A DNA stretch of 63,616 nucleotides, the filler included, from Nemertoderma westbladi (Eukaryota > Animalia > Xenacoelomorpha): assembly GCA_032718475.1 (NCBI GenBank). It is 4 parts of 4 records of this genome, joined end to end, with 100 filler letters (N's around TTAATTAATTAA, not from the genome) between each part and the next. Parts side by side here need not be neighbours in the genome. Positions count along the whole stretch, not along the records: positions 1 to 21,291 come from JAUCBJ010005278.1; 3 more parts are not named here. One strand, given 5' to 3'. Below are positions 2,288-57,526 of the stretch, piece after piece. The position numbers and the translations under genes are program-made. The number at the start of each line of letters is the position of its first letter. Within the stretch, counting starts at the first letter, position 1. Under the pieces are notes generated by a model. It made no database searches, had not been told where the DNA came from, and was given only the letters and a program-made list of their open reading frames with translations.

Positions 2288-3658
2288 TTGATCTTATTGA
2301 TCATATTGATCTCGATTGCTGCAAAGCTATACAATATAATTCTATTAAATCGCATCAGGGATCCCATTGAGAGACTGCTCCGTGGAAATCAGAATGGGTT
2401 CCCTAAAGGTCGTAGGACCATGGAGCCCATTTTGGCACTTAGAAGGTTAATTGAAGAGTTATCAAAAAAGAAAGAAGGGCATCTGTCTGTTATCTTTGTT
2501 GACTTCTTCAAGGCCTTTGATTCAGTCTCTCGCTCACGTATGTTCAGCATACTTTCATTATATGGGATTCCTGATGAAATTATTGCAGCAATCAGATCAG
2601 TATACGATGGTTCGACAACATTTGTGTCTACTGTTGACGCTGACACAGAACCATTTTAAGTGTTATGGGGCGTCCTCCAGGGAGACACACTTGCTCAATT
2701 CTTGTTCATAATTGTGGTTGACTATGTTCTACGCATGTCTTTAGATCATCATAATGATGATGGGGTGATGATATCTCCACCTACTGGCTCCAGAAGTCGA
2801 GGAAATCTTGCCAAGTACCGAACTGATCTAGACTTTGCTGATGACTTAGGAGTACTCTCAGAATCACTAGAGGGAGCCCAACGGCTCCTCAGGTCATTAG
2901 AACAGGCTGCTTCTAGTGTTGGTCTTTTTATTAACTCCAGAAAGACCAAAATTTTGACAGTTAACTTTGAAAGTCCTCAGCAAGTCTCTGACCGGATGAG
3001 CATAAGCTCAAAGGATGGTATGCTTGAGCATGTGGACGACTTCTGTTACCTGGGATCATGGATCCGGAAGTCAGGTGAGGACCTTCGAATACGTAAGGGA
3101 AAGGCATGTCAGCCTTGTATAGGCTTTCCAGGATTTGGAAGTCACCGAGAATTAATCGGAAACTTGAGATCCAATTATTTAGAGCAGCAGTAGTTCCAGC
3201 ACTCCTCTACGGGAGTCCATGCTGGGCTCTAACTTCTGAGGACACCAAATCTCTGGATGGCACATTCACAAGATTGCTACGCCGGGATTCATTGTGTCAA
3301 ATATAATACACACATCTCCAACCAGACACTATATAACATTGGAGGTGTCTCATTGGTTCCCCCTAGCATGACAATAGAACAAAATCGCCTCCGCTTTGCA
3401 GGACATTGCTTTCGCCGTGAGGACCAGCCAGTGCATAATCTTGTACTTTGGCAGCCTCATGGAGTGAATAAGCATGGTGGGCAGCCCATGACTTTCTTGA
3501 GACGCATCTTAAAGGCCACTGGCCTTGAAGATGCGGATGATCTAACAAATGTCATGGGTGATAGGGAGTTGTGGCAGCGCAATTTTGTCGATTGCACACA
3601 ATGCCGGCACAGCATTCTTAAAAATGCAGCTGCAATGCAGCATGCCGATCCTAGTTGA
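2288..3658 (+). pseudogene. 5'-truncated RTE-clade LINE, reverse transcriptase and C-terminus, with stop and frameshifts
   Basis: ORF pieces carry QNGF..GR, FVDFFKAFDSV, GVLQGDTLA, DFADDL, FCYLGSWI, LLYGS..W and RLRFAGHC..LWQP motifs typical of RTE ORF2. Confidence 0.9.
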
Positions 3659-5075: not shown

Positions 5076-5572
5076 TGTAAGCGGATCCAATTTGCTGCAC
5101 CACCCAGCGGAAAATAAGGAAAGTGGCTTTTTACCAATTATAGTTGGCGAGGTGACAATACTATTATAATGTCACCTAACAACCAACGAAGGCAATATAC
5201 ACTGCCAGCAACACGGAGAGATGAGAGGCTACAAGCCATCTCAGGGGGATGAAGGAAGCTAGCACGTGGGTATCAGAGAAAAGGGAGTGCCAAGGGAGGG
5301 AAAAATAGATTAGCCAATGGTTGGGCAGAAAGCCATCTGATTGGGATGCATCCATTGGCCAGGCCAAGTACCAAGTAGCAATATTCCATATGTGTTACTA
5401 ATATAACCGTTGCCTTTATTACCTGTTGTTCAGTTGGTTTATGTAGAGTTGTGGAAGAAAGACGGTTTAGACCATCATCATCGTCATTAACCATGCTATT
5501 ATTGTATTCTGACTGACATTACGAACAACTGCCACTAAAAACTCAGTTATTCTATCAGCCTCCGGCCTTTCA
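5076..5572 (+). repeat. 5' LTR of BEL copy 1 (last ~100 bp and PBS missing)
   Basis: Aligns to 10697-11167. Similarity stops at CCTTTCA. Confidence 0.85.
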
Positions 5573-8500
5573 TGGGACGGGAGCGGCAAAAGAAGTACCG
5601 GAGTCGCCAGCCAACCAGTGGCTACAGGCGGCGAGCGGCCACCGGAACGGCAACGGTGGGGCCGACGGTACCATGCCGGACGAGGAGAGGAGATCAAGAG
5701 GTCGAGGAGGAGGATGTCGGCACGAGTGATTGCCTGCGACGGGCGTATAACGCCATGAGGAAGACTCTAAAAGATGCCAAGACAGGAGGCAAGGTAGATG
5801 AACCCAAACTGGCTAGAAGACTCAGTGAGTACAACCAATATTTTCACTACCGAGTCCGATTTGGGCAGGGGGAACTGGCGCGTGAAAGGGCGAGGAGAGT
5901 CGCCATGGAGAGTCATCAATGGTACTGTTTGAATTGTGGCGATCCGAGATTATACCATATCGTGTAGTGTACGCTGGGCCTTATCTGGTGGATGCGTGGG
6001 GGGTTAAGTTAGTGGAATGGGCGGGTTCGAACGACGCCGAACTCGAGGTTATCCCGGAAGATTCGGCGTCGTCCGTTAATGAAACCACTAGCAGGCATGG
6101 TAAAATTAGTAGAACCAGCAGGCGACAGGGGTCCGTTGCAACCTAAAAGTCTGCTACACCCTCCACGAAAGCAAGAAGTGTGTTAGAGATAGATCTGGCA
6201 TGTCAGCTAGACATAGCCGCGTTATATCAAAATGAAGTAGAGAGACAACTGGATGAGGGGACCATGTTGTTAGACCGGGAGAGGGAGTTAGTGAGAGAGT
6301 ATAAAGGGAGGGCCGAGAAGGTGGCCAGAGAGTGTAGAGAACAGGAGGAAAGGGAGGTGAATGAGCGCAAAGAGCGGGATGCGAGTGTTGAGAGAGAGGT
6401 GAACGAGTGCAAAGAGCGAGAGGCGAGGGAGGCAGAGTTAGCCAATCAGAGTGTTAGAGAGGAAAGGGAGAGGGAGATGGTTGGTAAGAGAATGCGGGAT
6501 AATATGCATACCTGATTGAGGGGGTTAATGCAGTATCAGGCCAAGCAGAAACGCCGGATAGAACTGGTGAAACTGGGTTTATCAGAGAGTGAGGCTGGTT
6601 CGGGAAGTATTTATGAGGAACCAGATGTGATGGAGACCTTTGAGAATACCTCAGTTACAGGTACCAGACAACAAACACAAAACTGGTGTGACCAGACGGA
6701 TGGGGGGGGGATAATAACAATACGTTTAGGGGGAACGTTAATATAAATAATACCGTAGTTGATAATTTAAATACTGATGAAAATACCTTTCTTACAGGAA
6801 ATAATGTTGATACTGGTACAGCAAATAATTTAAATAATTTAAATAATAATGTTAATAGTGGTGCAATAAATAATCAGAATAATTTAAATAATAACGGCGA
6901 ACAGAGTAATTTAAATAATTATATTATAATAAATAAAGATGGTGAAATTAAATTAAACGTTTAAAAATTTAATAAAATTAAAGACGGTAAATTGGAGGCC
7001 TACAAAGCCACGTGGAGACGCAGGCGAATGGACCCAGGGGAGATAGGAGCAATGTGTCGACTGGAGGGGGGTGTGAAGGAAGGGGTGAATGGGCCGTGAC
7101 GAGAAGTGACGGGTGGGGGGGAGCTACAAGCACCCCACCGCAACCAGTTAGTGAAAAGAGGGGGGGGGGGCAATAAATGCCCCACAGATGTCGGCAGGAA
7201 ATATGCGCGGTGATTCAAGTGAACCATGGCACCCGATGATGGGGGGGGCAACAGACGCCCCGCGAGCGTTGGTGGGAAATGCGCATGGTGAGTCAAGTGA
7301 ACCGTGACACCCGACAACGGAGGAGAGTAGAAGGGCTGCGAATATCTACGAGGCCCTACAACCTACAAAAGGGAAAAGTGTTCATGCCGCAAGTGGCCAA
7401 ATGAGGGAGTGTCGAACCCATTCGGAAGATGGAAGGAGAACAGTATATTTCAACCGGGAGGTCGATACGAGATCTTTATGAATGTAGGTATAACGCCGGG
7501 AGTGGAGGACACGAGGACGATAGAGATAAGTGAGGAAATGTTGCTACGGGCAACTGGAGATATCGAGATAGGATGGACAGTGAAGCGTCGATAGTCGAAG
7601 TAGAGAGAGAGGGCTGGTGGGGTTGTACTTTGGGAGATTGCCGTCGCCCTGGAGGAATACAGCCCGGTGATGTATATTACACACCGAGAGAGGGGTATAG
7701 AGTGTACCGAGATGAGGAGGATGAGATAAGAAGGGATCGAAGGGAAACTTCCCATCGGAACGTAGCTGCCGATCGACGATATGGTAGTCGCGGGAAGGAG
7801 TTCTCGGAATATTCGAGAAGATTTAACTTCGGTCAAGGGGGAGCACATTCAGACTGCAGGACATAATGTAGGTCTTACTGAACATACTATAGGCCATGCT
7901 GGGAGAAATAGTGTAGGTGATAGGGTAGCGCTTTTACTGCCGGGTTTAAACCCGGAGGTCGCGGCTTACATACCGGTGAGTAGGCAGGAACCTGCTAAGC
8001 CTATACTGGTACCGGAACACCAGTATGACAATAATATGCAGGGATAAAACATATACCCAGGGGAGGGGGAGGGGGGGGGGTATTGCAGATAAGTGTATGG
8101 GCCTCAATATAATGAAATCTACCCCAGCGCAAAATATAACACCGATGGGGGGGGGGGGGGGGCAGGGTTACACTCCTCCATCACATATATCTCATATGCA
8201 ACAAAATAAAATAAAGGTCGCATCCCCCTCAGATGGAAACAAGTCGTGCGACACCGAGATATGAAGGAGACCATTGCCCCCAATGATATATCCCACACAG
8301 GGAAAATCGACGAACCCGAAGCACAGTCAACACCAAAGAGCCTGCATCCGTGCCATAAAGCGCGCTGGAAAATCAAGCGATAGAAATGGCAACACTCATC
8401 GACGTGCTAAAAACTAGAATAGAGCTGCCACCTGTGGAGCCTTTTAAGTTTGATGGTAGCAAGCTGGAAGAATATCTACAGTTCCGGAGGATCTACAGCA

Positions 8501-9725
8501 ACGAGATTCTTACGAAAAATATCATACAGGCGGAGTGCCTTAAATATCTACAAGTCTATACAGGGGAGGCCAGCCTACGACATTGTGAGGCAATATCAGG
8601 GAATTGAAGGAGGATTTACAACAGCATGGAGAGCCCTGGATAGGGAATTTGGCCATCCTGCGAAGATTATCTGACAAACCTTAAGGGGAATAACATCAGG
8701 TGGACTCACAGACAATCCTGTTAGTATCAAAACCTTCACTAATAAAGTAGAAAAGGCGCTGATAGTCTTAAAGTTATTAAAGTGACTAGATGCACCATAT
8801 GAACTCAAAGCATCGAATAACATCATGTCCATAGCGCAGGCACAAATTAAGGAACAAATGGAGAAAGATCGCTTTCTCCACCAGAGAGAAGAAGGGTGCG
8901 GAGCCGGGGTTGGAAGAGATGTCGAACTTCCTTAACTACGAAGCCGAGTTGATAACAGATCCAGTGTACAGCGAGGAGAGTCTCAGTAAGGTACCGAAAG
9001 CGGAATACAGCCGACCTAAACCGGAACACAGTGCTGCAGATGCATTTCCGAGAGTGAGGCAATCATTGCCATATGCTATGCAACTGTTGAGGGGACTTCT
9101 AGTCCACAGAACAACTGTGGTGGCTATGGAGGAAACAACACCCCTGATGCGGGTATGTGTAACCAAAACAACAAACCACCCAAATCGGACTTGGACGAAA
9201 TACGTAAGACGCTATACAGAGAGCGTTATAATCCAAACTACAGGTGTCAGCTACATAGAAAGCATGTGCATATATGGGATGGGACGCATAAGACCATCGA
9301 TTGCGACCAGTGGCAGGCACTGCTGAAAGAAAATTGATTAGCCTATAAGGGTTATTCCACAGATGCGTGGTGGGAGGACATAAGAAGGATAGGTGTCGAG
9401 AGAACCCACCAAAGTACACTGAGACCAATGGGACTGGAGGCCAAACTATGGCCATGAGTACTGGGAGATCTATGAAGCAAAGGACAGTGTTAATGGGAGT
9501 GGTGCCAGTAAAGATAATGGGAGAGGATGGGCGATCGGTAACTACACTTATGTTGATCGACAGTGGGGCAGCATTCACGTTGACAGAAAGCTGGGTAGCG
9601 GATAGCCTACAGTAAAAGATGAGGTCGAGCATGATGGCGGTCACCACCATATCCGCCAAGGATGAAATTCTACCAATGAGAACAGGAAGGTGTCGGATAG
9701 GGGCTGTAACTCCCGATTCCAACTA
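5572..9725 (+). pseudogene. Disrupted BEL gag-protease
   Basis: Coiled-coil ORF at 6180-6515, LPPVEPFKFDG..EEY.QF (DUF1759-like gag) at 8386, zinc-knuckle remnant HRCVVGGHKKDRC, and aspartic protease TLMLIDSGAAFTL at ~9545-9585. Many stops and frameshifts. Confidence 0.85.
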
Positions 9726-9734
9726 TGGTACACA

Positions 9735-9920
9735 ATACTTACGCTGGGTCAATGGGACCAATACTTACGCCGGGTCAATGGGACCATACATACGCACTAA
9801 TGCCGGGTCAATGGTACCATACATATGCAATAACGCCGGGTCAATGGGACCATACATATGTAGTAATGCCGGGTCAATGGGACCATATAGAGCCTAAATG
9901 GAGTTATGATTAAGGGTTAA
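9735..9920 (+). repeat. 33-bp tandem repeat (5 cores GCYGGGTCAATGGKACCA) ending in AAGGG|TTAA
   Basis: Cores start at 9743, 9769, 9802, 9835 and 9868. The array lies exactly at the point where pol is lost. Confidence 0.85.
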
Positions 9921-9980
9921 CGGACGTATTAGGGAAACACATGGTAGGAAGAGTAGAGGGGTAGGCCAACCCAGACTGTG

Positions 9981-10126
9981 TGGTCATTGAACAACAGGTC
10001 AGAGTTTAGGATTTATTGTGAGAGCTTATCCTGCGGGATAAGAATCGTCCAGACGGGCACTACCAGGGGTATGAGTAGGAGGGACACTTGATGGGACCAC
10101 CAGAGAAACGTTATCGAGATATGGTA
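9981..10126 (+). pseudogene. Degenerate 3' remnant of the exonuclease/zinc-knuckle cargo ORF
   Basis: Manual translation WSLNNRSEFR...TTRG / EGHLMGPPEKRYRDMV matches WTPENRGEFR...ATRGKQEGHSEGPPAKRYQELI in ORF 15466-16614. Confidence 0.7.
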
Positions 10127-10696
10127 AATGTACGATTTACTATAGTCAGATAGAACCTTTTCCAATTAGCTACTGGGACTGGGTACTACTTGGCTGGAAC
10201 GGGAGGACGAGGTAAAGGACCCAATTACCGCAGTGCGCACGCGTGTGAGGTTGTGTGGGATAACAGGCGTGTAGAGTGAGAATAAAAGGGGTTGAGTATG
10301 AGAGGAGCATGGGAAGGAGGTGCTGGAGTTTGGGGGAAAAGGCAGGAAGTGCATGATCCGAGAGTGGTGGGGGGGCGAGCAGGGAGGAGGATGAGTCCTA
10401 TGGGACTAGTGAGGTGAGGAGGAGGTGAGGAGGTTAGATGATGGTGTCCGGGGAGAAAAATTGAGTGAGAAGATATGGCGATTGTATAAACAGAGATGTC
10501 AGATAACTTGGTACAGCTTCGCTCGCAGAAGTACCAAGGAAGGGTAGTGAGAACAAACCCACGGGGACTAGTCTGGAACACTTATCCCAAGAAAAATATA
10601 CCACACCACATCTAATACTAGATTGGATTCCAGCGGAATTGGAGCGCACTTTAGGTTGATGCTATCTTCTCACCGGGAAGATAGCATGGGGGGGAG

Positions 10697-11270
10697 TGTA
10701 AGCAGATCCAATTCGCTGCACCACCCAGCGGAAAATGGGGAATGTGGCTATTTAACAATTATAGTTGGCTAGGTGACATTACTAATATAATGTCACCTAA
10801 CAGCCAACGAAGACAACTACATGGCCAGCCACAAGGAGAGATGAGAGGCTACAAGTCATCTCATGGGGACGAAGGAAGCTAGCACGTGGGTATCAGAGAA
10901 CTGGAAGTGCCAAGGGAGGGAAGAATAGATTAGCCAATGGTGGGGCAGAAAGCCATCTGATTGGGATACATCCATTGGCAAGGCCAAGTACCAAGTAGCA
11001 ATATTCCATATGTGTTACAAATATATCCATAGTTGGTTTGTGTAGAGTTGTGGAAACAAGACGGATTAGACCGTCGTCGTCGTCATTAACCGTGCTATTA
11101 TTGTATTCTGACATTACGAACAACTGCCACTAAAAACTCAGTTATTCTATCAGCCGCCGGCCTTTCAGAAACCACAAGCCTTTCAGCAGCCAACGGACGC
11201 GGCGACGCGTACTATCCAAACGCAAACACACTGGTCGGGATTCCCTCGCCAACTCGGGGATCCCGTCACA
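10697..11270 (+). repeat. 3' LTR of BEL copy 1 (574 bp)
   Basis: TGTAAGCAGATCC...GGGATCCCGTCACA, preceded by the PPT and followed by the TSD. Confidence 0.92.
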
Positions 11271-14102: not shown

Positions 14103-14763
14103 TGTGACGGGATCAGAGATCCCGACCGGGTTAGAAATGTACGCGTCACTGTTCTGCTGGGGGATCGTGCTTGTAACTTTGGCCGAGGCTGTTGGGGAAA
14201 AACAATAAGAGTTTCTGTTGTCTCTCAATATTGATTAACACAGACGATAGTAGCACGTCGGTAGATAATAAGCAGAAAATACAGATTAATTGTTACCGGT
14301 ATGGTGGTGGCGGTCATTAACTATGACCGGTCTGCACTGACTGAACTGAATAACACAACTGACCGGTAAATCAGTGATGTAAGATAATATATGATTAACA
14401 CACATGAATATTGGTTATACCTCCTACCATACTTTGGCCCTCTACCCAATGGATGCTTTTATGTTCCTAACCACGTGCTTCCCTCCCCACTATTGGCTAA
14501 TATACTAATTGTCACTTTGGCACTCCCTGGGAGTGTTTCCCCCCCGCTGCTAGCCTCTACTAGCTGTATTCCCTCCGAGGTGGTTTGACCTCTCACCATT
14601 CTCTGTGGCTTTGGGGCTTGTGTCGCCACCCCCCCCCCCCCCCCCCCAAATGTTGGTTATGAGACGAGATTAATATTGGTAATCACGTATCCCCAACATA
14701 TTGCTAAAATGCTACTGGCCCCATTTTCTGGTGGGTAATGAAGTGGAATTGAATCCGCTTACA
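14103..14763 (-). repeat. 3' LTR of BEL copy 2 (661 bp)
   Basis: The reverse complement reads TGTAAGCGGATTCAATTCC...GATCCCGTCACA. Confidence 0.88.
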
Positions 14764-15465
14764 CTCCCCCCATGCTATCTTCCCGGTGAGAAGATAGCAT
14801 CAACCATAAAAGCGCTTCAATTCCGCTGGAACCCAATCTAATATCGGGTGTGGGGTGGAGTTCTTTTCTTGGGGTCAGCTTTCCAGGCCGCCCCCCCTGG
14901 GTATGATATTACTACCCCTCCTTGGTGCAATCGCGAGCTATGTTGCACCAAGGCATCTGGCGTCTCTACAGTCGTGCTTTCTCTTCACACAATTTTCTAG
15001 AACCTCTCTTACTCTCGGACCTCTTTGTCCCTCACTCTCCCTCTCGCAGACCTCGTCGTCCCTTACTTTCTCTCTTACTGTTTGCCCCCCACACGCTCCC
15101 CCGGAATTGCACATTTCTCACCTCCACACATGTCAGCACCTCCCCTCCACACTTCTCTCGTACTCAACCCATCTCTGTTCCCACTCTCGTTTCTTTCATT
15201 GGGTCCCACGCATGTGTGCACCATGCTAGTAAGATCCGTCTAAAGTCTCGTCCGATTGTAGTCAAGTGGTCACCAATCCCAGTAGCTAATTGGAAAAGGA
15301 AGTGTATGACTATAGTACTTACTTTGGTTATATTTATTGTAATTATATTGATTATTTACATACGTACATACTAATTGCACTTAGTTATATTTTGCACTTA
15401 GGAGTTCGCATATATACTCCCAAATGTGGTGCCTTCCAGGCATGCCCACATCTCCCCTCTGAGTC

Positions 15466-18023
15466 CTAGTTCGCTCCTCCCATCTTCGGGAACCATCTTA
15501 GTTCTTTTCCCCTGTCATCGTCTTGTCTGGGCCGCTTCCTTCCCTCTGGCTTGTCCTCCCTGAGACTCCTCATTCTCGCCATTACTGCCTTGCTAATTCC
15601 CGTGGTCGATTCTTTGGACGCTGGTGTTATCAACTCCTGGTAACGCTTTGCAGGTGGCCCCTCCGAGTGCCCCTCCTGCTTCCCCCTGGTAGCGTCCCAC
15701 AAGATCTTTTTCATCGTTTGCGGCATGTGCTCCATCAGAAAATCCCTAAACTCTCCTCTGTTTTCTGGTGTCCATGTATCCAAATACCTCTGCGTGTTGA
15801 TGACTCCTCCATACGATGCCGCTGTCGCTACCTCCTGGTATGTGAATGACAGTCTCCTCTTAATAATCTCCAGATGGGCTTCCTGATTGATGTTGAAGAA
15901 ACCCCACCAGAACTCATGGGCCTTCATCCTCTGTCGCATCATAACGCCGACGTCGGCCCACTCCTCGAAGATCTTAAACTTCTCCTCATCGTCCATCCAG
16001 TCGCACTGGCGCCCATAGGGCCCTCGGAAGTTACACTTTGAGCAGCGGTTGTGCAGCCTCGGACATGCTCCCATCCTATGGCTCGACTCGAGGCAGTAGA
16101 GGCAACTCATCCCCTTTTGAAATCGATACAAACAGCTCTTTTCCTGGTGAGTCAGCCTCCCGCAGTAATCACAGCCGTGTATCAATGCATCCCGCCCCAA
16201 GTAGTCTTTTGCCCAGAGCAATCTCCTAGGTCTGTGGAGCCGTTGGTAGGCAAAATTCTGGACATTAACGTCTCTATCCATATCCATGTCCTCCTCCCGC
16301 CTTGGCATTGTCTCCCCAAACACTACCCATGGTGCCGTTCCCAGCTGCTCTCCCAACCTGATGATGCTCCCCGCGAAATCCATCGCCGGCTCCTCGTGCA
16401 CCCAGGTCCGCTTGCCAGGTTTATCCCAGAAGGCCCTCGCCCCGCTGGCCGTCACCACCCTCCCGCCCACCCAGTCCGTATCTGAGTGGCCGATCCTCTC
16501 GATGGGCGGCATCTCGTCGAACTTGTCGTCATCTTCCTCCCTCGCCGGGAGTGCATCCAGACCCGGTATCCCGGTAGACCCACTGTGCCCCTTTCCGCCT
16601 TGGCTTCCGCCCATAACTCTCCACCCTTCCTGTTCCCTTGGTCTCTTTCTTTGAAATTGCCTTCAGAGCCCACTGGCATGGGCATCACTTGCAATCCCGA
16701 TGTCGACTGTTTCGGCGATTCTTCCGTCCATCCTAGCTCCTCCCCCAGAAACTCGCCCGAGCTCCCTGATCCCCACCTCAGCTCGTCCAAGTTCTGGGCC
16801 TCGAATCCGTAATCCTATCCCCTAATCTCCGCCTCTCTCTCATCTGCCTCCCTCCTTTCTCACCTGGCGACTTTTTCCAGTCGCTTCTCCTCAAGTCTAT
16901 CTGCTTCCAGCTTCTCCCATCTCTTGTATGGTGTATCCACCTCTCTGTCTACTAGGTGCCGGCTGTTGTAGTACACTAACTCGCCCTTCAGCCCCGGGTG
17001 GTCTGTCAGACCTTCGAAGGCCACCTTAAAGGCTCTTCTGTAGTTTAGAGGTGCTCCTGATAGCAGAAACGCCGTCGGCTCTCTTCCGATAACCACGGCC
17101 ATGAATAGGTTTAGTAAACCTATCATTATCCAGTCCTCCTGTAGGATATATCTCTTCTGATATATCTTTATCGCTCCTCTTCGAAACTGATACACCTCCT
17201 GTTTCCCTGGCCTCGCTCCCCACTTCAGCGAGTTCGCCAGCTCCGCTCCATACTCCTCCTGGAACATACCCCAGTCCATCGGCTTGTGGCAGACGAGCCC
17301 CATGAGCTGACCCATCGCCACTGCTCCGCAATGTCCTGTGTTCTCTACCAATCCCAACCCGTCTGGCCCTGTCATGGCCATATAGACTGCTTGCATGTCC
17401 AGGAGGTTGGGGGTCTCTGGTCTGACGATCCTCTCCGCATCATCGCGGATCGCCGATCCCACCTTCATTGTTGTCTTCTCTCTTAATAGGTATTGCACCG
17501 CCCTTGGCAACCGGTTTAACTTTGGCCCGCTCTTCTTCATCTAAGTTCCTAGATCGAATAGGAATATGTCTCCATTTGGCGCAGCCAAATGCAGTAGTAT
17601 GGTTCTAGCCGATCCCGCCGACCCTCTTTTCGAACCCTCGTCGTCCTCCACAGTCCCCTTGTCATCCAGTACCATGTATCCGCATGTAGGTGGTTCCCTC
17701 GGATATTTTGGTATCCCGAACTTTGCTTCATCCCCTTTCACTACGTAGCGAAAATGCTCGAGGGTCGCGTTGTCCAGTGACAATGTCCCGTAGGTCCCGA
17801 CCAGTCACCTCTCGTGCATATCCCTGACGTGGTCCTGCAGCGCTCGCGCTTTGTGACCCTTCGCTAGCGGCTTGTAGTATCCCCTTGTCTTCTCTTCCGG
17901 ATGCCTTTGTGTGAAGTCCACTAGTATCTCCTTTCCACTCCTCTCCGTCTTTCTCCTCTTAACTAGTCTCTCCGCCATTACGAACTTCCTCACTCGCTTA
18001 CCTGCTTGGTGGTGCCTTGCCAC
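15466..18023 (-). pseudogene. Extra (env-position) ORF: DEDDy/WRN-EXD-like 3'-5' exonuclease plus three CCHC-type zinc knuckles, disrupted
   Basis: ORFs 17805-18023, 17541-17783, 16860-17540 and 16452-16790 share one frame separated by isolated stops, then a frameshift leads into 15466-16614. Exonuclease-like motifs: YMVLDDKG, ILLHLAAPNGDIFLFDL, LPRAVQYLLREKTTMKVGSAIRDDAERI, LLDMQ, KW, QKRYILQEDW. Knuckles: CDYCGRLTHQEKSC, CLYCLESSHRMGAC, CSKCNFRGPYGRQC. Confidence 0.7.
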
Positions 18024-18516
18024 GGCTCAAGTAGAGGAGTGACGTTTAGTAAGATGGTCTGTACTAGTTCAGTAATGGCCTATCTCTCTCAAATGCTAAA
18101 TTTTGTACTATATTTTTCCTATACGTCCCCAAAGTGCCAATTTTTTCTAAATTTCCTAAATCTGTCAGTTACTTTTATTATGTTCTAGAATCTTTTACTT
18201 ACTGTTACCATAATTTGTCAGATTTTTACTTCAAATAATATCTTATTTCCTACTAGTGTGCTATTATCACTTATGGTGGGTTATTTTACTTAGATAACCC
18301 CTGTGGTTTGTATAACGGGAAAACTAGCTACTCTCTGCTGTGCTAGCTTCATACCAGGCAACTTCCTGGCCCTGTAACAAACACCCTAAACTTACTCTAT
18401 GGGTTGTGCAGTACAGTAGTCTGTCTCGTGCGGCCTACACGGTCTATCCTGCTGTACCCACTTGCCCCCCCCCCCCCCTCTCTCTTCCGTGGCGCTCCCT
18501 ATGCCCACAACCTCTA

Positions 18517-19030
18517 CGGTACTACGTACCCTACTATTACTCTTATGGTATATTTATATACCATAACTCTCTACTCTCCCTTACTACTAACTTTTACTAA
18601 CTCTACTAACTCTAACTTCTACCAGCGGTACTACGTACCCTGCCACTACTCTCGTGGTATGTTAATATACCACACTCCCTAACTTCTATCTGCCTACTAA
18701 TGGTACTATGTACCCTACTACTCTCGTGGTACGTCAATGTACCACACTCCCTAACTTATATCTGCCTACTAACGGCACTATGTACCCTACTACTCTCGTG
18801 GTACGTCAATGTACCATACTCCCTAACTTCTATCTGCCTACTAATGGTACTATGTACCCTACTACTCTCGTGGTACGTCAATGTACCACACTCCCTAACT
18901 TATATCTGCCTACTAACGGTACTATGTACCCTACTACTCTCGTGGTACATCAATGTACCACACTCCCTAACTTCTATCTACCTACTAACGGTACCCTAAC
19001 ACTGCTACTATGGTATACCTACATACCATA
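18517..19030. repeat. 72-bp tandem repeat containing small hairpins
   Basis: Units start at 18701, 18773, 18845, 18917 and 18989 (partial), with degenerate units at ~18517 and ~18626. Confidence 0.9.
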
Positions 19031-19199
19031 CCCTCTACTCTCTTATTACGTGGCGCTTTCGGTGCCCACAACCCCTAACTCTCTCGGTACTACGTACTAC
19101 GTACTATCTACTACTATTACTTTCTAACTTTCTACTATCTCACTTCTTTATTTTATTATTTTTGCTTATTTGTGTGGGAAGGGCGTCTCGCCCTCATTC

Positions 19200-19358
19200 C
19201 CACCCCCCTCAGTCCAACATTTTGGATGACTAAACTCTAAGGTGCCCCTTCCAATAGGCAGCACTTTCCTCCTCACAGCCCTCCTGTAGGTCTTCCTATC
19301 TTTGGCTCCTATCTTTCCTCCAATTCTCACTTCTAGGGATCTGACTCTTCCATCTTCG

Positions 19359-19389
<31 letters not shown>

Positions 19390-19560
19390 TTCAGTCCTAC
19401 TTATTGGGCGACTCAACAACCTAAGGGTGATTCTTCCAGCAGGCAACTCTCCCACTGCCCCCCTGTAGGTCCTCTAATTCTTCGCCCCACTCTCCTTGTC
19501 AATTCCAACTCTCTTGGAACTGACCCTCCCTTCTCTTCCATCCTTAAATCGGGTCTTTCT
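19200..19560 (-). pseudogene. Two tandem degenerate copies of the BEL integrase C-terminal tail, each followed by a G-run
   Basis: Manual translation gives GEDGRVRSLEVRIG..TYRRAV..CLLEGAP* and DGREGRVSS..RTYRG..CLLEESP. Compare DRVFRTVSVKT..RPVQQLVLLEES in ORF 56982-57458. Confidence 0.65.
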
Positions 19561-20061
19561 GTTATGTCACTGGTCTACTTGTGGTCGTCCCCTGGCGGCA
19601 AAGTGCCACCCTTCATCTTGTCATTTGGCGGTAGAATGCCGCCCCTCATGCCATCCTTACTGGTACATGCTACCTCTGTCTGCCTCCCCCTCAATATGTG
19701 CGCCGGCATTAAAGCCCTCGATGATCCCCGGTCATCCTTTGGTACATGTAATGGTTTACCATTAATGCCCCTTCGCACTCTGCCACCTCCTTATGCGTGT
19801 ACAACACGCCCTCTCCCACTTTCCTGCTTCCTTTGTCAGGTTTCATCATGGGCTTCTCTGACCCTGGTCTAATCTTCCCACATCCTCTCCCTTTCCACCT
19901 TGTCTTCTTACTCGACCTCCCCCTTTTAGGTATGCCTCTCAACTGGACTGGCGTCTCCTCTGGACACTCCTCCGGACACTCCTCCGGACATCTCGCCATC
20001 CACTCTTCTCCACCCCCATACTGATACTTGCCAGGAACATCCTTGTTCCATCCCATCGCCT

Positions 20062-21268
20062 CTAGGTCTTCTGTGTCGAACCCATTCTCCTCCGCCCACT
20101 ACTCTCTTGGTCCTCAACAATGCCTGGCAACATGCACTCTGATGTCTCCGACATCCTGAATCGAATCTTGGTTTTGATTGGGCCGCTAAGCGTCCATCCG
20201 AACGGTGTGAGAACTGCCATTGGATCACGCTGCCTGTCCTCTCCAAAATTTGTTCGTACTCTCTCGTGGGCCGTCGGACAGTCCATTCCCACTATGATGG
20301 ATACCTTCCGGACGTCCACTTCCGGTATCGAGAAATCGATTTCGTCCAGGAATCTGTATTGCTCGACCTCGATGTTAGTTGGTCGCCTGGCATTTATGTT
20401 GATCGATTCTATTACCTGAATGGGGTCGATGGTCGCCCCATAGTCACATCCCGGTGCTATTGCTGATATCTCGCACCTTCCCGTCCTCATCTCCAGGACC
20501 TCATCCTTGCTGGAGATAGTAGTTACCGCCATCCTGCTCGGCCTCGTCTGTAACCTTATCTCCTCGGCCACCCAATTCTCCACCAATGTGAAGGCTGCTC
20601 CGCTGTCGACCAGCATCAACGTCGTAACTGATCGACCGCTTTCTCCCATCACCCTCACTGGTACCACCCCGAGTAGTACCGTTCCCCTTCTCTTCGCTCC
20701 TACGGTGCTTGTCGCCATCGTTTGGCCTTTGCCTTGACCGAATTTAATTGGTGTCTCTTTACATTGCTCAGCCTTGTGTCCGCCCGCCACACATCGATGA
20801 CAGATTCCACTTTTGTTCGCGTATTCTACCTGATCTTGTTTGGGTAACGCTTGCCAGTACTGCAGTTCATGGTCTGATGAAGTGCGTTCGAATGTAATTG
20901 GCATTTGTTTCTCGGATTATAGCCTTCCCTATACAGCGCGCTGCGTATCGCACGTATGTTCATACTTAGCTCTCTACTGTTCTTATTATTTGGGTTTGGC
21001 CTACTGGGCGTGTTGGGGTTATATTTATTTGTGTTGTTATTTTTCCCTGTCCATGCCATGGTGTGGCCCTACCCCCGGCTATCTGTGGACTAGCAGTCCC
21101 CTGTGTCGTCGCGTATGGTAGCGATTGTCTCAGCTTTGGTAATGCATTTGCCGCACTATGTTCTGGTTTCGGCCTGTTATATTCGGTCTTTGGCGCCCTC
21201 CCCAGACTATCCTCGCTGTAGACTGGGTCCGTGATCAACTCTGCTTCATAATTGAGGAAGTTCGACAT
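20062..21268 (-). pseudogene. BEL gag C-terminus and aspartic protease (frameshifted)
   Basis: CHRCVAGGHKAEQC knuckle, TLMLVDSGAAFTL protease, IIVGMDC and PMAVLTPFGWTLSGP are BEL-typical motifs. Confidence 0.88.
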
Positions 21269-21291
21269 TTCCTCTAGGCCCGGTTCCGCAC

Positions 21292-21391
21292 NNNNNNNNN
21301 NNNNNNNNNNNNNNNNNNNNNNNNNNNNNNNNNNNTTAATTAATTAANNNNNNNNNNNNNNNNNNNNNNNNNNNNNNNNNNNNNNNNNNNN
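21292..21391. other. Assembly gap with six-frame stop linker
   Basis: 100-bp N spacer containing TTAATTAATTAA. Confidence 0.97.
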
Positions 21392-34894: not shown

Positions 34895-35945
34895 AACAAC
34901 TCCCTATTCCCCATGACATTTGCTAGATCATCCGCATCTTCAAGGCCAGTGTCCTTTAAGATGCGTCTCAAGAATGTCATGGGCTGTCCACCATGCTTAT
35001 TCACTCCATGAGGCTGCCAAAGTACAAGATTATGCACTGGCTAGTCCTCACGCCGAAAGCAATGTCCTGCAAAGCGGAGGCGACTTTGTTCTAGTGTCAA
35101 GCTTGGGGGAACCAATGAGACACCTCCAATGTTATATAGTGTCTGGTTGTAGATGTGTGCATACCATCCTTTGAGCTTATGCTCATCCGGTCAGAAACTT
35201 GCTGAGGACTTTCAAAGTTAACTGTCAACATTTTTGTCTTTCTGGAGTTAATAAAAAGACCAACACTAGAAGCAGCCTGTTCTAATGAGCGGAGGAGCCG
35301 TTGGGCTCCCTGCCTCTAGTGATTCTGAGAGTACTCCTAAGTCATCAGCGAAGTCTAGATCAGTTACATTCTAACTTCTGGAGCCAGTAGGTGGAGTTAT
35401 CATCACCCCATCATCATTTTGATGATCTAAGGACATGCGTAGAACATAGTCAACAACAATTATGATATTATGAACAAGAATGGTGCAAGTGTGTCTCCCT
35501 GGAGGACGCCCCATAACAAATGGTTCTGTGTCACCGTCAACAGTAGACACAAATGTTGTCGAACCATCGTATACTGATCTGATTGCTGCAATAATTTCAT
35601 CAGGAATCCCATATAATGAAAGTATGCTGAACATACGTGAGCGAGAGACTGAATCAAAGGCCTTGAAGAAGTCAACAAAGATAACAGCCAGATGCCTGTC
35701 TTTCGATTTTGATGACTCTTCAATTATCCTTCTAAGTGCCAAAATGGGCTCCATGGTCCCACGACCTTTACGGAACCCATTCTGATTTCCACGGAGCAGT
35801 CTCTCAATGGGATCCCTGATGCGATTTTTAATAGAATTCTATTATATAGCTTTGCAGCAATCGAGATTAATGAGATTCCCCGAAAAGGACCATAGAGTGT
35901 TAGGTTGCCCTTCTTGGGAACTGGCACCAACTTATTTCTTTTCAT
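34895..35945 (-). pseudogene. Second copy of the RTE family (internally deleted)
   Basis: Near-identical to 2288-3570, and extends further 5' with LVPVPKKGNL..FRGISLISIAAKLYNRILL. Confidence 0.9.
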
Positions 35946-36985: not shown

Positions 36986-37301
36986 GAGGTAATTTTTTTA
37001 AATTTATTTTGTCTGTTTATTTTATTCAAACTTTTATCATACATTTTATTGCAGAAATTACCAGTTTCTAATTTTATTGCTTTATTGTTAATGTTTTGCT
37101 TGTTGTGCCGAGTCCCGGCTTATTTCCGATTTTATATAATATGATATGAATTAATAAAAATAGATATAATACTGTAATAATATCAGAATATCGAAAATAG
37201 CAGTAACGGTACTAACACTAATATTAATATTATAACAGTATAACATCGTGATACCTGGACAGCTGGATACCAGTTTCGGTTTCACGGGACCGGAAATCGG
37301 G

Positions 37302-40300
37302 ATGGATGAATTGGGTTTAATAGACGAGGACGACTTCCAGTCGTTTATGAAAGAATCCATATCCGACGAGTCGCTATCGATTGACACGAAACCGAAAGTA
37401 AAAAATAAACCGTGGTGGATGGAGGAAGCCGGAAGAGGGGAATCCGGACCTCCCGGAAACTGGGCGGTTGATTCCGGACGGATCGGGAGCCAGTTCCTAA
37501 AGCAGCGGAAGTCCGAGGATTCGGTGGGTCTCGATTCCATGCTCCGGGATATGCGTGACGTCACGGAAGGGTCACAACGAAGCCAACTGCTGAAACGGGG
37601 CGGAGTTGATGTGCTGGACGGTAGCTTCACCGATACTCTAAGCTACAGCGAGACGGGCACCTTGGGAGGGGCGCCGGGGGATACAGGCCCCCCACGGGAC
37701 CCCGCACCACCAGATATCCTGCACGCCGACCACCACGACTCGCCCCGATCCAACAAACCCCCGCCCAACCCGAATCGGGTCGCCTTCGAACTCCAACCCG
37801 CCCCGCTCGGTGGCAATTTATTATCCAAAGTCGCTTTGGATTCGTTCGATTCTTCCTTCAACACGAGTAAGGACGGCGGAGTGCCGGTACGAACTGTGGG
37901 TAACTTTACTGAGACCAGCACGGACCTACACAACCTACAGAGGGCCTACCAGTCCCAGTTCGGTCAGTCCACCTTGGATAATGTGGAAGCGTTGAATGCG
38001 GACGAGTTGGGTAGGAGTAAGTCTGACAGCGAGATCGTGGAGGATATTGAGGTTGTTAGTGAGGCACATAAACGAACAGAGGTCGATAGGGTTGGTGGAA
38101 CAACGGGAGGTGGAACGGATGGGGGAGCAGAGGTGGGAACAATTCCATCAACCAAAGAAGAACTTATGAAAGAAATTAATTGGCCTAAAAGCGAAACTGG
38201 AGATGAAAAACTGATGGACCGTAGTGATGAGGACAAAGTAATAGAGGCGACGAGACGCAGGCTGAAGTCATTGGGGATAAAAACCACGGGATCCTCAGGG
38301 GATGAAGTTCCACTGAAACCGATAAAAATAAAACAGTTTAGTAAACAATCGGGTCGCAAATCCCTCGATAATCAGGGAAAGGTCTCCCAGAGCAAGGGCG
38401 TTGTTATTCCGCAGCAGTTGGGGAAACTCAGCTCGCAGCAAACAGGGAAGAAACCGCAGCAAACTGGGAGGGGACCGCAACAGCCGGGGAGAGGCCCGCA
38501 GCAAACTGGGAGGGGTCCGCAACAAACTGGGAGAGGTCCACAGCAAACTGGGAAGGGACCGCAGCAAACAGGGAAGGCGCCGCAGCAAATGGTTAAACTT
38601 CCGCAGCAACGAGTTAAGAAACTCTCGGCTCTCAAAGGAGTCGGAATGAAGAACGAGTCGTACTTGTTGCCAAAAGCGAACCGAGTGAGGGAATCGACAA
38701 GTCGGTCGGTTAGTGGCGAGAGAAACCCCGAACAGTCAAGGAAGGATGGGGTTAAAGGGAGTTGGGAGTCCGGGGGAAGGGATGGGGTTACAGGGAGTTG
38801 GGAGTCCGGGGGGAGGGATGGGGTTACAGGGAGTTGGGAGTCCGGGGGGAGGGATGGGGTTACAGGGAGCTGGGAGTCAGGGGGGACGGACAGGGTTAAA
38901 GGGAGTCGGGAGTCGGTTGAATCAACTGGAATAGTTGAAGAACTCAGCGAAAAGTTCCGAGTAGAGAAGAACAAAGTCTCTGAGTTGGATAACCAACTGA
39001 AATCCGTGGAGGGGAATTACTCGAAGAAGGTAGAACTACTTAATCTGCAGCACGATAAACATATCTACGATCTAAAGAAGGACAATTTCATATTGAAAAC
39101 TAAACTATCGGATTTAGAAGAGGAAATAAACAGGGATAAAAAGTCGGTGGAGGTAAATAAAGCTGATGTACCCGATGATATGCAGAGGAACATTGATGAG
39201 CAAGAGAAGTTAATCAAGGGGTTCCAGATTGAGAACGAAAGAATTTATAAAGAGTTGCAGGAGATTCGTGAGGTTAGTAAGAAGGATGTTGATTCTTTGT
39301 TCCAGGAGAATCAGCGTCTACAGCAGGATAATTCCAATCTCCGGGAGAAACTCGGGGACAAAGAACGCCAGTTGAAGTACCGGGAGGTTACTAGCGTTGA
39401 TAACGCCGATAAATGTTTTGTCGTCCAACACAACAACCAACTCGAGGTTATTGATAAGTTACGGGAGACAAATCGAGAGTTGCAGAGCCGTTTATCGACC
39501 CGGGACGCGGCCGACGGGGATATAAAGTCAGAGTATCAGCAGAATATCTCGCAACTCAACGCGAAGCTGCGGTGGTTCGCCGAGAACCAAGAATTGTTGA
39601 GTCGCGGAGCGGAGGAGCTCAAGGCGAAGAATGAACGAGTCCGGGAGCTGGAGGAGGAGCTGGGAAGGGGAGTGGAGGAGCGGAGGAGGAAGGGAGTGGA
39701 GGCGAAGAGGATCCTAGATCTGGAGAGGCAGGTGCGCGAGATGGAGGCGATCATAAAGAGGAGGCATCCCCCCAATTCGATTCCCGCGTTGATCTGGGCG
39801 GCCAGTGGGTCGGCGGCAACGGAAGCCGGAGAGAAACCGACCTACAGACATCTAGAGTCCATGGTTGCTAAGTTACAGAAGCAACTAGACGATAGGGACT
39901 CCGAGAACGATATTAAACTTAGAGTTCTAGAACAGCAGTACTTCGCGTTGAAGTTTCAGTATGAGGAGCGAATTGGGCAGTTGGAAGGGCGCGGCGGGGC
40001 GACTAAAGGGGGCGAGACGCGTCCCTTCAGCCACTCGGTGGCGTTGCAGAAAGAGTTGGAATCCGTGCGGGTCAAATACAAAGATGAGGTCGAGTCCCTG
40101 AAGGCCGAGGTTAAACATCTGCAGGGTCAGTTGGAGAGTAAGGAGTCGTTGAAGGAGAAATACCGGCTGTCCCAGAACGAGTTGCAAGTCAGTAGGAAGG
40201 AGATTGGGAGTCTAAAACGAGTTCTAGAGGAACTCAACGCAAAGAAAAAGTTTACAAGCAAAGAGAGTAAATATAGGAAAGAGTTTACGGATATTATTGG

Positions 40301-41030
40301 GCTGGGCGATCAGCAGGTTGTCGGGAAGAAAGTTTATCGTCCTGACGACTTTATGGAGGCGGTTAATGTGGCTGAACTGTTGGAGGAAAACAAACAGCTG
40401 AAACGGGAAGTCGAGGCGATGCGACTTAATTTGGACGAGACGCGGGTTAAATACCAGGCGGATCTCGCGAACTCGGAAGCGATGGCGAGAACTTCCCGGG
40501 AACTCGTGTCCGACCAGATGGAGGCCCTCAGTCGGGAACACAAGCGCGAGGTCGAGGTAATGGTCGCTAGGTTGGGTAGCAACGCGAACAGCGACGAGGT
40601 GGAGAGGTTGACGAAGAAGTTGAACAATCAGGAGGCGTTGATGAATCACTTGGTGATGGAGGTTGAGAGCTGCAGGGAGTTACGGAGAAAGTTTCAAGAG
40701 TTGGGGGTTAAAGAGCAAACACTTCAAGGCCAGGTGCTTAGTTTACTGGAGGAGCTTAAAGAGGCTAGGGAGGAGCATTCGCCGGAGTTGAGGCATTTTA
40801 ATCGGCTTCAGTCGAAGATTAAGGAGTTGGAATCGCGAGACTGGAATTGCGGCAGGGATCCGGTACTTTCGGCGGAAGTGACCCGGTTGCGCGGTCTACT
40901 CAACTCGAAAGATCGCGAGATCCAGTCGTTTCGTTTGGAACTCGATTCCCTTATCGATGTGTTGAAACAACTCCATAACGACGGGGTGTTTATAGACGCA
41001 GACAAGTACCAGTTGGGAGGGCGACTGTAG
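37302..41030 (+). CDS. CEP162: Centrosomal protein of 162 kDa (CEP162/QN1) orthologue, single exon
   Basis: N-terminal DEDDFQSFMKE..PWW, EQEKLIKGFQIENERIY, LRWFAENQELL, DLERQVREMEAIIKRR..NSIPALI and FRLELDSLIDVLKQL resemble CEP162 as recalled. First ATG at 37302; the frame is open from a GTG at 37248. Confidence 0.9.
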   Translation: MDELGLIDEDDFQSFMKESISDESLSIDTKPKVKNKPWWMEEAGRGESGPPGNWAVDSGRIGSQFLKQRKSEDSVGLDSMLRDMRDVTEGSQRSQLLKRGGVDVLDGSFTDTLSYSETGTLGGAPGDTGPPRDPAPPDILHADHHDSPRSNKPPPNPNRVAFELQPAPLGGNLLSKVALDSFDSSFNTSKDGGVPVRTVGNFTETSTDLHNLQRAYQSQFGQSTLDNVEALNADELGRSKSDSEIVEDIEVVSEAHKRTEVDRVGGTTGGGTDGGAEVGTIPSTKEELMKEINWPKSETGDEKLMDRSDEDKVIEATRRRLKSLGIKTTGSSGDEVPLKPIKIKQFSKQSGRKSLDNQGKVSQSKGVVIPQQLGKLSSQQTGKKPQQTGRGPQQPGRGPQQTGRGPQQTGRGPQQTGKGPQQTGKAPQQMVKLPQQRVKKLSALKGVGMKNESYLLPKANRVRESTSRSVSGERNPEQSRKDGVKGSWESGGRDGVTGSWESGGRDGVTGSWESGGRDGVTGSWESGGTDRVKGSRESVESTGIVEELSEKFRVEKNKVSELDNQLKSVEGNYSKKVELLNLQHDKHIYDLKKDNFILKTKLSDLEEEINRDKKSVEVNKADVPDDMQRNIDEQEKLIKGFQIENERIYKELQEIREVSKKDVDSLFQENQRLQQDNSNLREKLGDKERQLKYREVTSVDNADKCFVVQHNNQLEVIDKLRETNRELQSRLSTRDAADGDIKSEYQQNISQLNAKLRWFAENQELLSRGAEELKAKNERVRELEEELGRGVEERRRKGVEAKRILDLERQVREMEAIIKRRHPPNSIPALIWAASGSAATEAGEKPTYRHLESMVAKLQKQLDDRDSENDIKLRVLEQQYFALKFQYEERIGQLEGRGGATKGGETRPFSHSVALQKELESVRVKYKDEVESLKAEVKHLQGQLESKESLKEKYRLSQNELQVSRKEIGSLKRVLEELNAKKKFTSKESKYRKEFTDIIGLGDQQVVGKKVYRPDDFMEAVNVAELLEENKQLKREVEAMRLNLDETRVKYQADLANSEAMARTSRELVSDQMEALSREHKREVEVMVARLGSNANSDEVERLTKKLNNQEALMNHLVMEVESCRELRRKFQELGVKEQTLQGQVLSLLEELKEAREEHSPELRHFNRLQSKIKELESRDWNCGRDPVLSAEVTRLRGLLNSKDREIQSFRLELDSLIDVLKQLHNDGVFIDADKYQLGGRL

Positions 41031-41899: not shown

Positions 41900-43000
41900 A
41901 ATGACCTAGAATACCTGACCTGACCTGACACTCTTGCTAACCTCCAGTGATTGGTTGCAATTGTGTCATCTGTGACCATTATGAGGTCGCCTTCCTTTAA
42001 GTCCTTCTGCTCCTCTCACCACTTTTTTCTACCATGAAGTGTGGGTAGATAATCCCTTATCCATCTTTCCCAAAACTCCGTCGCTATTGCGTTGGCTTCT
42101 TTCCACATCTGTTTGGAGAGGTAGTCATCCTTGACCTCTTCATTTATTAGTATTTGTGCTGGTCTTTCGCATAATATATGCGCTGGTGTCAATGCTTCTA
42201 ACGATTCCGGGTCACCATTTACTGGACACAATGGTCGACTGTTTATTATTCCTTCGCATTTAGCTAATGCCGCCCTTAGGATGTCTTCTGTTACTACGTG
42301 GTTTGCTAATAACGCTTTCATATCTCATTTCATGCTTCCTACTACTATCTATAAATCCTGTGGTGTGTGGTGCATATGTTGTCTGCATCGACCACTCTAT
42401 GCTGTGTTTCCTTACTAAAGATTCCACATGTTTGTGGTTATATTCTTTGGCTGCCTCCCTTAATTCTCTTTCTCATCTCATTCGTTCCATTGTCCAAGTA
42501 TAGTTTTATAACTACTCATCCTCTCCTCATTGTAGTTCAAGCACATTGATGAATGCATGAATCGCATCCATGGCTATTTCTATAGAGATTGCCCTACTGT
42601 TATTGCAAACGAATATTATTCCGTACCGCTTTTCTGTGTGGTGTTGGACGATTATAGTAATGGTTACAAACATGTCTACTCCCATATATGTAAAGGGGGG
42701 CTCGTAACTTACGAATCTGTCTACTGGTAGTGCTGATATGTGCTGGTGTAATCTGGTCCTTCAGATCTTATCGCATGTCATGCATTCCTTAACCAGATGT
42801 TTTATTCTTCTCCTTATTTTTTCTTCTTCTTACTTCTCGTTATATTCGTATTTATTTTATGTATCAGCAAAGTTACGGTATCGGAGTTGTATAAATGAGC
42901 GCCATACTATAAGCATAAGTTTGCGCGTCTACACAGCCAGCCAGGTATGGATGGTTCATACAGTTATAAACGGCTTGATGTTTCCGCAAACTATATGATA
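41900..43000 (-). pseudogene. BEL/Pao integrase fragment
   Basis: CEGIINSRPL..LTPAHIL..FWERWIRDYLPTLHGRKKW, with upstream LPVDRF..EPPFTYMGVDMF..KRYGIIFVC. Confidence 0.85.
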
Positions 43001-46887: not shown

Positions 46888-47086
46888 TATAAAATTCCAA
46901 TCAATTATTGTAACTAACCTGGGGCCTTATGTGACCAACAAGTTATTATTCTGGGCATTGATACACATTGATGGCCAACCCTCTGATATTTTAACCTGAA
47001 AATGTTGCTTGTTTTAAATGTTAAAAAACCTATTTTGTCACAGTATTACACATTTTTTATAGCATGTATAGTGTAATTAGCGCGTA

Positions 47087-57287: not shown

Positions 57288-57526
57288 TCCGTATCATCAG
57301 AAAATGACACTATATTACGGGACATGGCGTATAAAGCAACAAAAACATATTTTTATTTTGGGACCCTTGCCTATACTGTACATCATTATAGTATAAAAAC
57401 TTGTAATACAATGCATCAAAAACATTTACTGAAAATGTTCAAACGGGCGGAACTGTAGCCTATTTTATATATTACTAATAAACAAGTCACGCAGAAAAGC
57501 TGTGGTACTAATAAGATATAGTATAC

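Follow-up and report, generated by a model that had tools for sequence, protein, structure and literature searches.

DEDDy-type exonuclease cargo in LTR retrotransposons is already published: a DEDDy ORF3 is carried by the bdelloid rotifer elements Juno and Vesta, and also by Athena/Terminon (Rodriguez, Kenefick and Arkhipova 2017, PMC5408684), a report that is repeated in PMC6431247 and PMC6338049. The role of such nuclease cargo has been unsettled since the rotifer report. An earlier note on the DNA studied here had mentioned precedents in rotifers and nematodes, of which the rotifer part is documented and the nematode part was not found, the word "nematode" having no occurrence in PMC5408684. 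For Bel/Pao elements, the sole third gene mentioned is env-like (PMC8742986), and an env-like gene is also the only third gene in the accessible part of de la Chaux and Wagner (PMC3118150), where the word "exonuclease" has no occurrence. Within the open-access literature, Repbase and subscription journals being outside the scope, we found no report of a DEDDy or other exonuclease cargo in Bel/Pao elements or in company with zinc knuckles. Here we describe an accessory ORF in a stretch of 63,616 nucleotides, filler included, from the xenacoelomorph Nemertoderma westbladi (assembly GCA_032718475.1), hereafter the window. The likely novelty of this locus lies in its Bel/Pao-type carrier, in the loss of pol and in the likely fusion of the cargo to three knuckles.

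The ORF-bearing element lies on the minus strand, on which all of its parts are read. A run of Ns at 21292-21391 conceals the 5' LTR, the primer-binding site and most of the gag of this copy, and no second same-strand copy of its LTR is present in the window. Next to the gap we find a gag tail (20966-21291) that shares 83% of 60 aa with its counterpart in a sister element in the same window, followed by one gag-type CCHC knuckle and an aspartyl protease (20062-20916), whose frame matches Pfam Asp_protease_2 above the cut-off (E = 2.4e-5) and DUF1758 below it (E = 0.19). A spacer at the usual site of reverse transcriptase (RT), RNase H and integrase (18024-20061), which contains a 72-nt tandem array of 5.2 copies (18619-18994), separates the protease from the accessory ORF. 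Downstream of the ORF, as described in the earlier note, lies a 3' LTR of 661 bp with TG..CA ends (14103-14763), and a polypurine tract (14764-14771) abuts it upstream. The LTR ends were set via alignment to a related solo LTR at 52478-53088, which bears a 5-bp target-site duplication. LTR size and tract fit the Belpaoviridae definition (LTRs of 0.2-1.2 kb, tract before the 3' LTR), and the 3' LTR of the sister element is preceded by the same tract.

We recognised no RT, RNase H or integrase in the 2.1 kb between the protease end and the ORF. No pol-type Pfam family matched over positions 18000-20101 in six read-through frames, and tblastn with the pol frames of a complete neighbouring Bel/Pao element (53-57.5 kb) gave no match in the spacer, while that element, used as a control, matches Peptidase_A17 and DUF5641. 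Many contigs cover every bin of the spacer, and its length leaves insufficient room for RT, RNase H and integrase together. What had been read as a pol tail before the ORF is protease only, its frame terminating at 20062 with none of the three enzymes beyond, and the ORF does not occupy the env slot after pol of a full Bel/Pao element, since the element is a gag- and protease-only derivative. The accessory ORF is free of transmembrane segments (hydropathy over 19 residues peaks at 1.59 and 0.77) and is therefore not env; no family match, to fusion proteins or to other families, was obtained that would make it an env-like ORF3. From these sequence features we file the element, putatively, as a Bel/Pao-derived, non-autonomous LTR element and not as an autonomous member of Belpaoviridae, a label drawn from Pfam matches below threshold and from motifs of the group, and not from an RT tree. 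We take DUF1758 and DUF1759 to be Bel/Pao-associated, and the GW-x-L-x-G motif after the protease is presumably a Bel/Pao trait.

The sister element lies on the plus strand (5076-11167). Its two LTRs are both present and 87% identical, and between them we find gag and a truncated protease but no RT or integrase. Its gag matches DUF1759 below the Pfam cut-off (E = 0.0023), and its 5' LTR is followed by TGG, for comparison with which the window contains no tRNA gene (the Belpaoviridae primer-binding site corresponds to tRNA-Arg or tRNA-Gly). A dUTPase-like reading of its leader obtained no Pfam support and was dropped. Nearly all of the accessory ORF has been lost from the sister copy, and we detect a decayed remnant of its 3' part at 9891-10127 on the plus strand, which matches 15880-15627 with a nucleotide score of 85 (highest shuffle 45; 0/500 shuffles reach it) and with a 16-aa protein match that is likewise reached by 0/500 shuffles. 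The occurrence of this remnant in the sister family indicates that the ORF predates the split of the two LTR families.

Between the first ATG (17978) and the terminal stop (15466), the accessory ORF comprises about 836 codons (about 850 when counted from 18023), interrupted by four in-frame stops at 17807 (TGA), 17543 (TAG), 16862 (TGA) and 16817 (TAG) and by a single frame change somewhere within the overlap 16662-16452. We thus recovered the frame of about 850 codons that had been proposed, with its isolated stops, two of them TGA, and its one frameshift. The N-half (16600-17978) contains the four stops and closes with a charged segment that is predicted to be helical, and the C-half (15466-16662) runs for 398 codons without a stop. 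Upon Markov resampling, a frame like that of the N-half with at most four stops arises in 8/2000 resamples, and a stop-free frame like that of the C-half in 0/2000. The overlap contains a short local repeat of the type left by slippage, which favours a lesion within one gene, without proof. We consider it probable that the two halves formed one fused protein in the replicating lineage; among the listed contig pieces, none bridges the frame change between them.

Direct searches with the N-half were negative throughout. No homologue was found among 2968 candidates of a word-seeded search, phmmer against 1.84 billion representatives returned 0 hits, Pfam, NCBIfam, PHROGs and PDB sequences gave no match, and metagenome and viral contigs contained no confirmed relative. 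Two weak matches were set aside, one on a plasmid (E = 3) that sits on an unrelated transporter-like locus, and one in a phage (E = 0.9), annotated as an oligoribonuclease, which is out of motif register and was taken as chance. Neither half matches the Pfam families that the earlier note had named, DNA_pol_A_exo1 and zf-CCHC.

Profile comparisons gave a signal. We built four DEDDy HMMs from PF01612 members of bacterial genomes (5, 35, 55 and 64 domains), after removing rows L152 and L153, of a different exonuclease type, from alignment A1 before A2; the 120 collected proteins, 16 of which were used in A3, are close Bacteroidales-type relatives throughout. With all four HMMs, the N-half tops 1327 targets, which include 1000 shuffles, 324 six-frame chunks of the window, the reversed sequence and the C-half. 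Its E-values of 2e-6 to 3e-5 apply to a single comparison and become roughly 0.05-0.8 when rescaled to Pfam size; 0/1000 shuffles reach them. HHalign local probabilities are 61, 82 and 62% over 158-171 columns (14% with a 5-sequence profile), with the local score reached by 0/100 shuffles in both profiles that were put to this control, a best shuffle of 4% and at most 0.35% for the reversed N-half; the global probabilities are 2, 44 and 5%. Additionally, BLASTP aligns the N-half to E. coli RNase D in register at the W..RP motif (E = 6e-4), and its identity to 48 bacterial DEDDy references is 13-24%.

The structure prediction that had been envisaged did not bear out the fold when unguided, the AlphaFold model (pLDDT 36.9) matching only helices and showing no DnaQ fold. 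An alignment-guided model of the domain reaches pLDDT 66.7, with core blocks at 65-91 across residues 41-120 and the ExoI region below 50. It matches WRN exonuclease with Z = 10.7 and rmsd 3.9 over 157 aligned residues, which is largely circular, as the model was folded on DEDDy rows, and the matches to EXD2 (E = 7e-4) and to EXD1, Nibbler and Egalitarian structures are circular in part. Judged on HMM, HHalign, alignment and guided model, the N-half very probably has the DEDDy fold, with a highly divergent DEDDy/EXD-type (DnaQ-like, EXD/WRN-type) 3'-5' exonuclease domain placed at 17079-17687. The DEDDy reading proposed from sequence inspection is therefore supported by the shuffle-controlled profile comparisons, although it does not attain significance at database scale and no fold match independent of the guided model backs it. 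That the N-half is instead an unrelated orphan protein with a chance motif match we regard as highly improbable. Such a reading would accord with the lack of library and unguided fold matches and with a hypothesis that was picked with the sequence already in view, but it would have to accommodate ordered matches over 158-171 columns that none of the 100 or the 1000 shuffles reach, as well as the core blocks of pLDDT 65-91 in the guided model.

We next consider the catalytic motifs, all of which are present in the order in which the earlier note had quoted them. ExoI has two candidate registers, D105-x-K107, which is broken, and D112-x-E114, which is intact. MAFFT and HHalign put the intact one in the ExoI columns, whereas the guided model places the first core strand at residues 101-104 and thereby favours D105-x-K107. 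The reported DxE with its E changed to K is hence present, but as only one of two registers. For ExoII, D180 occupies the conserved column after KVG in the 48-reference alignment, and for ExoIII, Y277 is invariant over 49 rows, with E281 in the D column and D282 adjacent to it. With two candidate registers for ExoI and a last acid that is either E or displaced by one position, the active site may be dead, and we regard the catalytic competence of the domain in the replicating lineage as close to evenly balanced, leaning slightly against. An inactive nuclease serving as an RNA adaptor in the manner of Egalitarian or EXD1, in which the fold would bind RNA and the charged helical linker would recruit transport or packaging partners, seems improbable to us. 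The model strand at 101-104, which favours the broken register with its K107, the ExoIII E where references carry D, and the Egalitarian structures among the fold matches all point towards it; against these, the intact D112-x-E114 agrees with the reference spacing, rotifer DEDDy cargo also accepts a D-to-E change (DEED; PMC5408684), and this copy has private lesions elsewhere, so that K107 may be one of them. A link to a BicD gene 43 kb away, prompted by the Egalitarian-BicD fold matches, was also considered, and nothing supports it.

The C-half has no family match, and a word-seeded search with its residues 60-330 returned no homologue among 509 candidates of lengths 218-697. It carries the three zinc knuckles that had been noticed (16003-16173): those at 16173 and 16104 are exact CX2CX4HX4C motifs, and the third, at 16044, has P in place of His. 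In shuffled sequences, even one CCHC arises in 7/100000 cases.

To place this copy among its relatives, we used contigs from sequencing runs placed at 80% likeness; three DNA runs of one organism (two studies) contain 29-46% of the sampled words, with X1 and X3 being one sample. On the element 17063, 10050, 10729 and 101 contig records were placed, all 30 of its bins being covered in 4/4 runs, with identity classes from above 99% down to below 90%, and in each of the three large runs single ORF variants are supported by 6-55 distinct contigs. The ORF belongs to a multi-copy element family and is not a one-off capture; it is borne by the element, and the alternative raised in the earlier note, a lone capture known only outside LTR elements, does not describe it. 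In the three large runs, 0-1% of the placed records run on into unlike sequence, which fits the layout of an RT-less family, though the contigs are short and this is no proof. The P of the third knuckle is private to this copy: at its odd codon (16019), 13162/13169 of the summed depth, which is not a copy number, differs in X1 and all of it in X2, X3 and X5, so that nearly all depth differs in 4/4 runs.

Frame-keeping was assessed on contig tables that are small selected subsets, comprising 31 of about 38400 pieces, 40 of 1513 variants, 12 of 184 indels and 15 of 131 joints. Among the 31 listed pieces, 7/8 inside the ORF are gap-free as against 0/10 from non-coding stretches (Fisher p = 2.5e-4, or 1.4e-3 with three probably identical pieces merged), a count that omits 7 flanking-repeat pieces, 2 that straddle an ORF end and 5 from gag/protease (all gapped). 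The frame is kept in ORF pieces that are only about 81-87% identical, and in one split piece the length difference is in-frame. Furthermore, 0/12 of the listed indels fall inside the ORF, and third codon positions hold 4/4 of the listed segregating ORF variants and 4/13 of the listed near-private variants of this copy. Losses also occur. Among the listed joints, 4/15 remove parts of the ORF, including one at 16920-17007, apparently out of frame, with summed depths (again not copy numbers) of 303 and 232 in the two studies. Together with the loss in the sister, these joints indicate that the ORF is dispensable for at least some copies.

Such losses are what would be expected if the ORF were a neutral passenger, made up of one or two captured fragments, namely a piece of a host exonuclease and a gag- or ORF1-like knuckle array, and possibly amounting to two ORFs. 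The deletion derivatives and the sister copy are in line with it, the joining of N-half and C-half is our own inference, and intragenomic ORF3 variation in rotifers is mostly neutral (PMC5408684). We nevertheless hold this to be quite improbable in light of the frame-keeping in pieces of about 81-87% identity, the third-position bias and the presence in two LTR families, and a homologous host gene was not found by the word-seeded searches or by phmmer.

Non-autonomous LTR elements are mobilised by helper enzymes in trans, single-stranded RNA is the ligand of CCHC knuckles, and DEDDy domains act at 3' ends. Against this background we tentatively propose that the ORF encodes an accessory RNP protein, in which knuckles and DEDDy domain would bind the element's own RNA and trim or shield its 3' end. 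Lacking RT and integrase, the element would depend on a helper, and an autonomous Bel/Pao element could supply both enzymes in trans. The ORF would be expressed via a separate spliced or internal transcript, as is reported for LTR ORF3s, and the substrates of the DEDDy family are listed in the same source (PMC5408684). The knuckles would then hold the single-stranded element RNA while its 3' end is engaged by the DEDDy domain, and the gain would be better stability or packaging of the carrying RNA. Retention of the ORF by a pol-less family would be explained by such a gain, and if the three-knuckle fusion is true, RNA is indicated as the substrate.

The same protein could instead be a counter-silencing factor whose targets, reached in trans, are the small RNAs of the host or the precursors of these, at piRNA or siRNA 3' ends. 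EXD1, EXD2 and Nibbler are among the nearest folds of the guided model, which is a partly circular comparison, a silencing role was raised for the rotifer cargo with EXD1 and Maelstrom noted (PMC5408684), and a different accessory domain of a retrotransposon is reported to suppress silencing weakly (PMC6338049). We think it unlikely, as a benefit in trans would also reach gene-less copies, which should make selection for the ORF hard in a non-autonomous family. Repression would in that case be weakened for the family and for its helper alike.

The most far-reaching reading would be an old Bel/Pao-type clade in this animal that gave up RT, RNase H and integrase but kept a fused, active exonuclease-triple-knuckle protein under purifying selection, a combination that we regard as doubtful. 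If true, it would amount to a parasite of retrotransposons that offers an RNA-processing or counter-silencing enzyme of its own in return for the helper's polymerase. A multi-copy family that is pol-less and keeps its cargo uncouples that cargo from reverse transcription and integration, and selection on the cargo becomes measurable.

The comparison with cellular and bacterial PF01612 DEDDy enzymes (EXD2, WRN exonuclease, EXD1, Nibbler/mut-7, RNase D and Egalitarian) shows alike motif order and predicted core in the N-half, whereas the N-half differs by insertions before ExoII and before ExoIII and by its ambiguous ExoI, and the ORF has no HRDC or helicase match but a downstream triple CCHC array. 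With Belpaoviridae (PMC8742986) the element shares LTR, polypurine tract, gag knuckle and, putatively, a Bel/Pao-type protease region, as well as the 5-bp target-site duplication, seen here at the related solo LTR; however, Belpaoviridae have RT, RNase H and integrase, and the ORF-bearing element has none of the three. Among non-autonomous elements, TelKA2n (PMC5408684) likewise lost most of pol and kept other coding parts, but its extra ORF is env-like, and plant TR-GAG elements largely lost pol and kept gag-side genes but belong to other superfamilies; within what these sources cover, neither carries a nuclease-knuckle cargo. The closest likeness remains with Juno and Vesta, compared here by published description and not by sequence. 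They too have a non-env extra ORF directly before the 3' LTR, with no transmembrane segment and with a function that is still putative; their RNase D/WRN-like DEDDy domain has a likely counterpart here, and their one catalytic D changed to E a possible one. They differ in having a complete pol (PR, RT, RH, IN), in belonging to other LTR lineages, and in that knuckles are described only in their gag and pol and not in the DEDDy ORF3 (PMC5408684, main text), whereas the present element, a Bel/Pao-type carrier, is devoid of RT, RH and IN, and its accessory frame likely runs on into three knuckles. DEDDy cargo would thereby be extended to the Bel/Pao lineage.

Three long uninterrupted host frames are found in the window, which suggest an intron-poor animal genome. 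These encode BicD (60886-63096, + strand; E=7.5e-113), a sodium:neurotransmitter symporter (44773-46926, - strand; E=1.4e-98) and a coiled-coil protein of 1264 aa (37236-41027, + strand), the last without a significant Pfam match and, we presume, resembling CEP162. We also observe a fragment in two inverted copies (2347-3572 and 34896-35838; 95-97%), with frames that by motif we take to resemble a non-LTR reverse transcriptase.

The sister element, a related RT-less LTR element (5076-11167, + strand), looks complete; its two LTRs share 87% identity, and no target-site duplication matches at its ends. Its gag is preceded by a 2.7-kb leader of degraded frames that match no Pfam family; among them are a stretch with Cys/His around position 5900 and, at 6147-6515, a charged one that resembles a coiled coil. 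A 33-nt tandem array lies at the site where deletion has removed the protease together with most of the accessory ORF. A solo LTR (52478-53088, + strand), 66% identical to the LTR of the focal element and carrying a 5-bp target-site duplication, lies within a decayed complete Bel/Pao element (~49000-57300) with Peptidase_A17 and DUF5641 matches. Additional Bel/Pao integrase-like fragments were detected at 41900-42800 (- strand; tblastn against the 53-57 kb element, E=9e-12 and 1e-6).

In the focal element, a splice-donor-like consensus (18003-17995, - strand) is located ~20 bases upstream of the first ATG of the accessory ORF, and an AT-rich stretch (18050-18300) lies farther upstream; from their sequence, both are possible candidate signals for an internal transcript of this ORF. 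Immediately after the protease, a 129-codon open stretch (19709-20098, - strand) contains a 12-nt tandem repeat and has no family match. Bel/Pao elements normally carry three knuckles at the gag end. The complete Bel/Pao neighbour displays more Cys/His motifs there, whereas both RT-less elements have a single knuckle (20800-20760, - strand, in the focal element; ~9350-9400, + strand, in the sister element).
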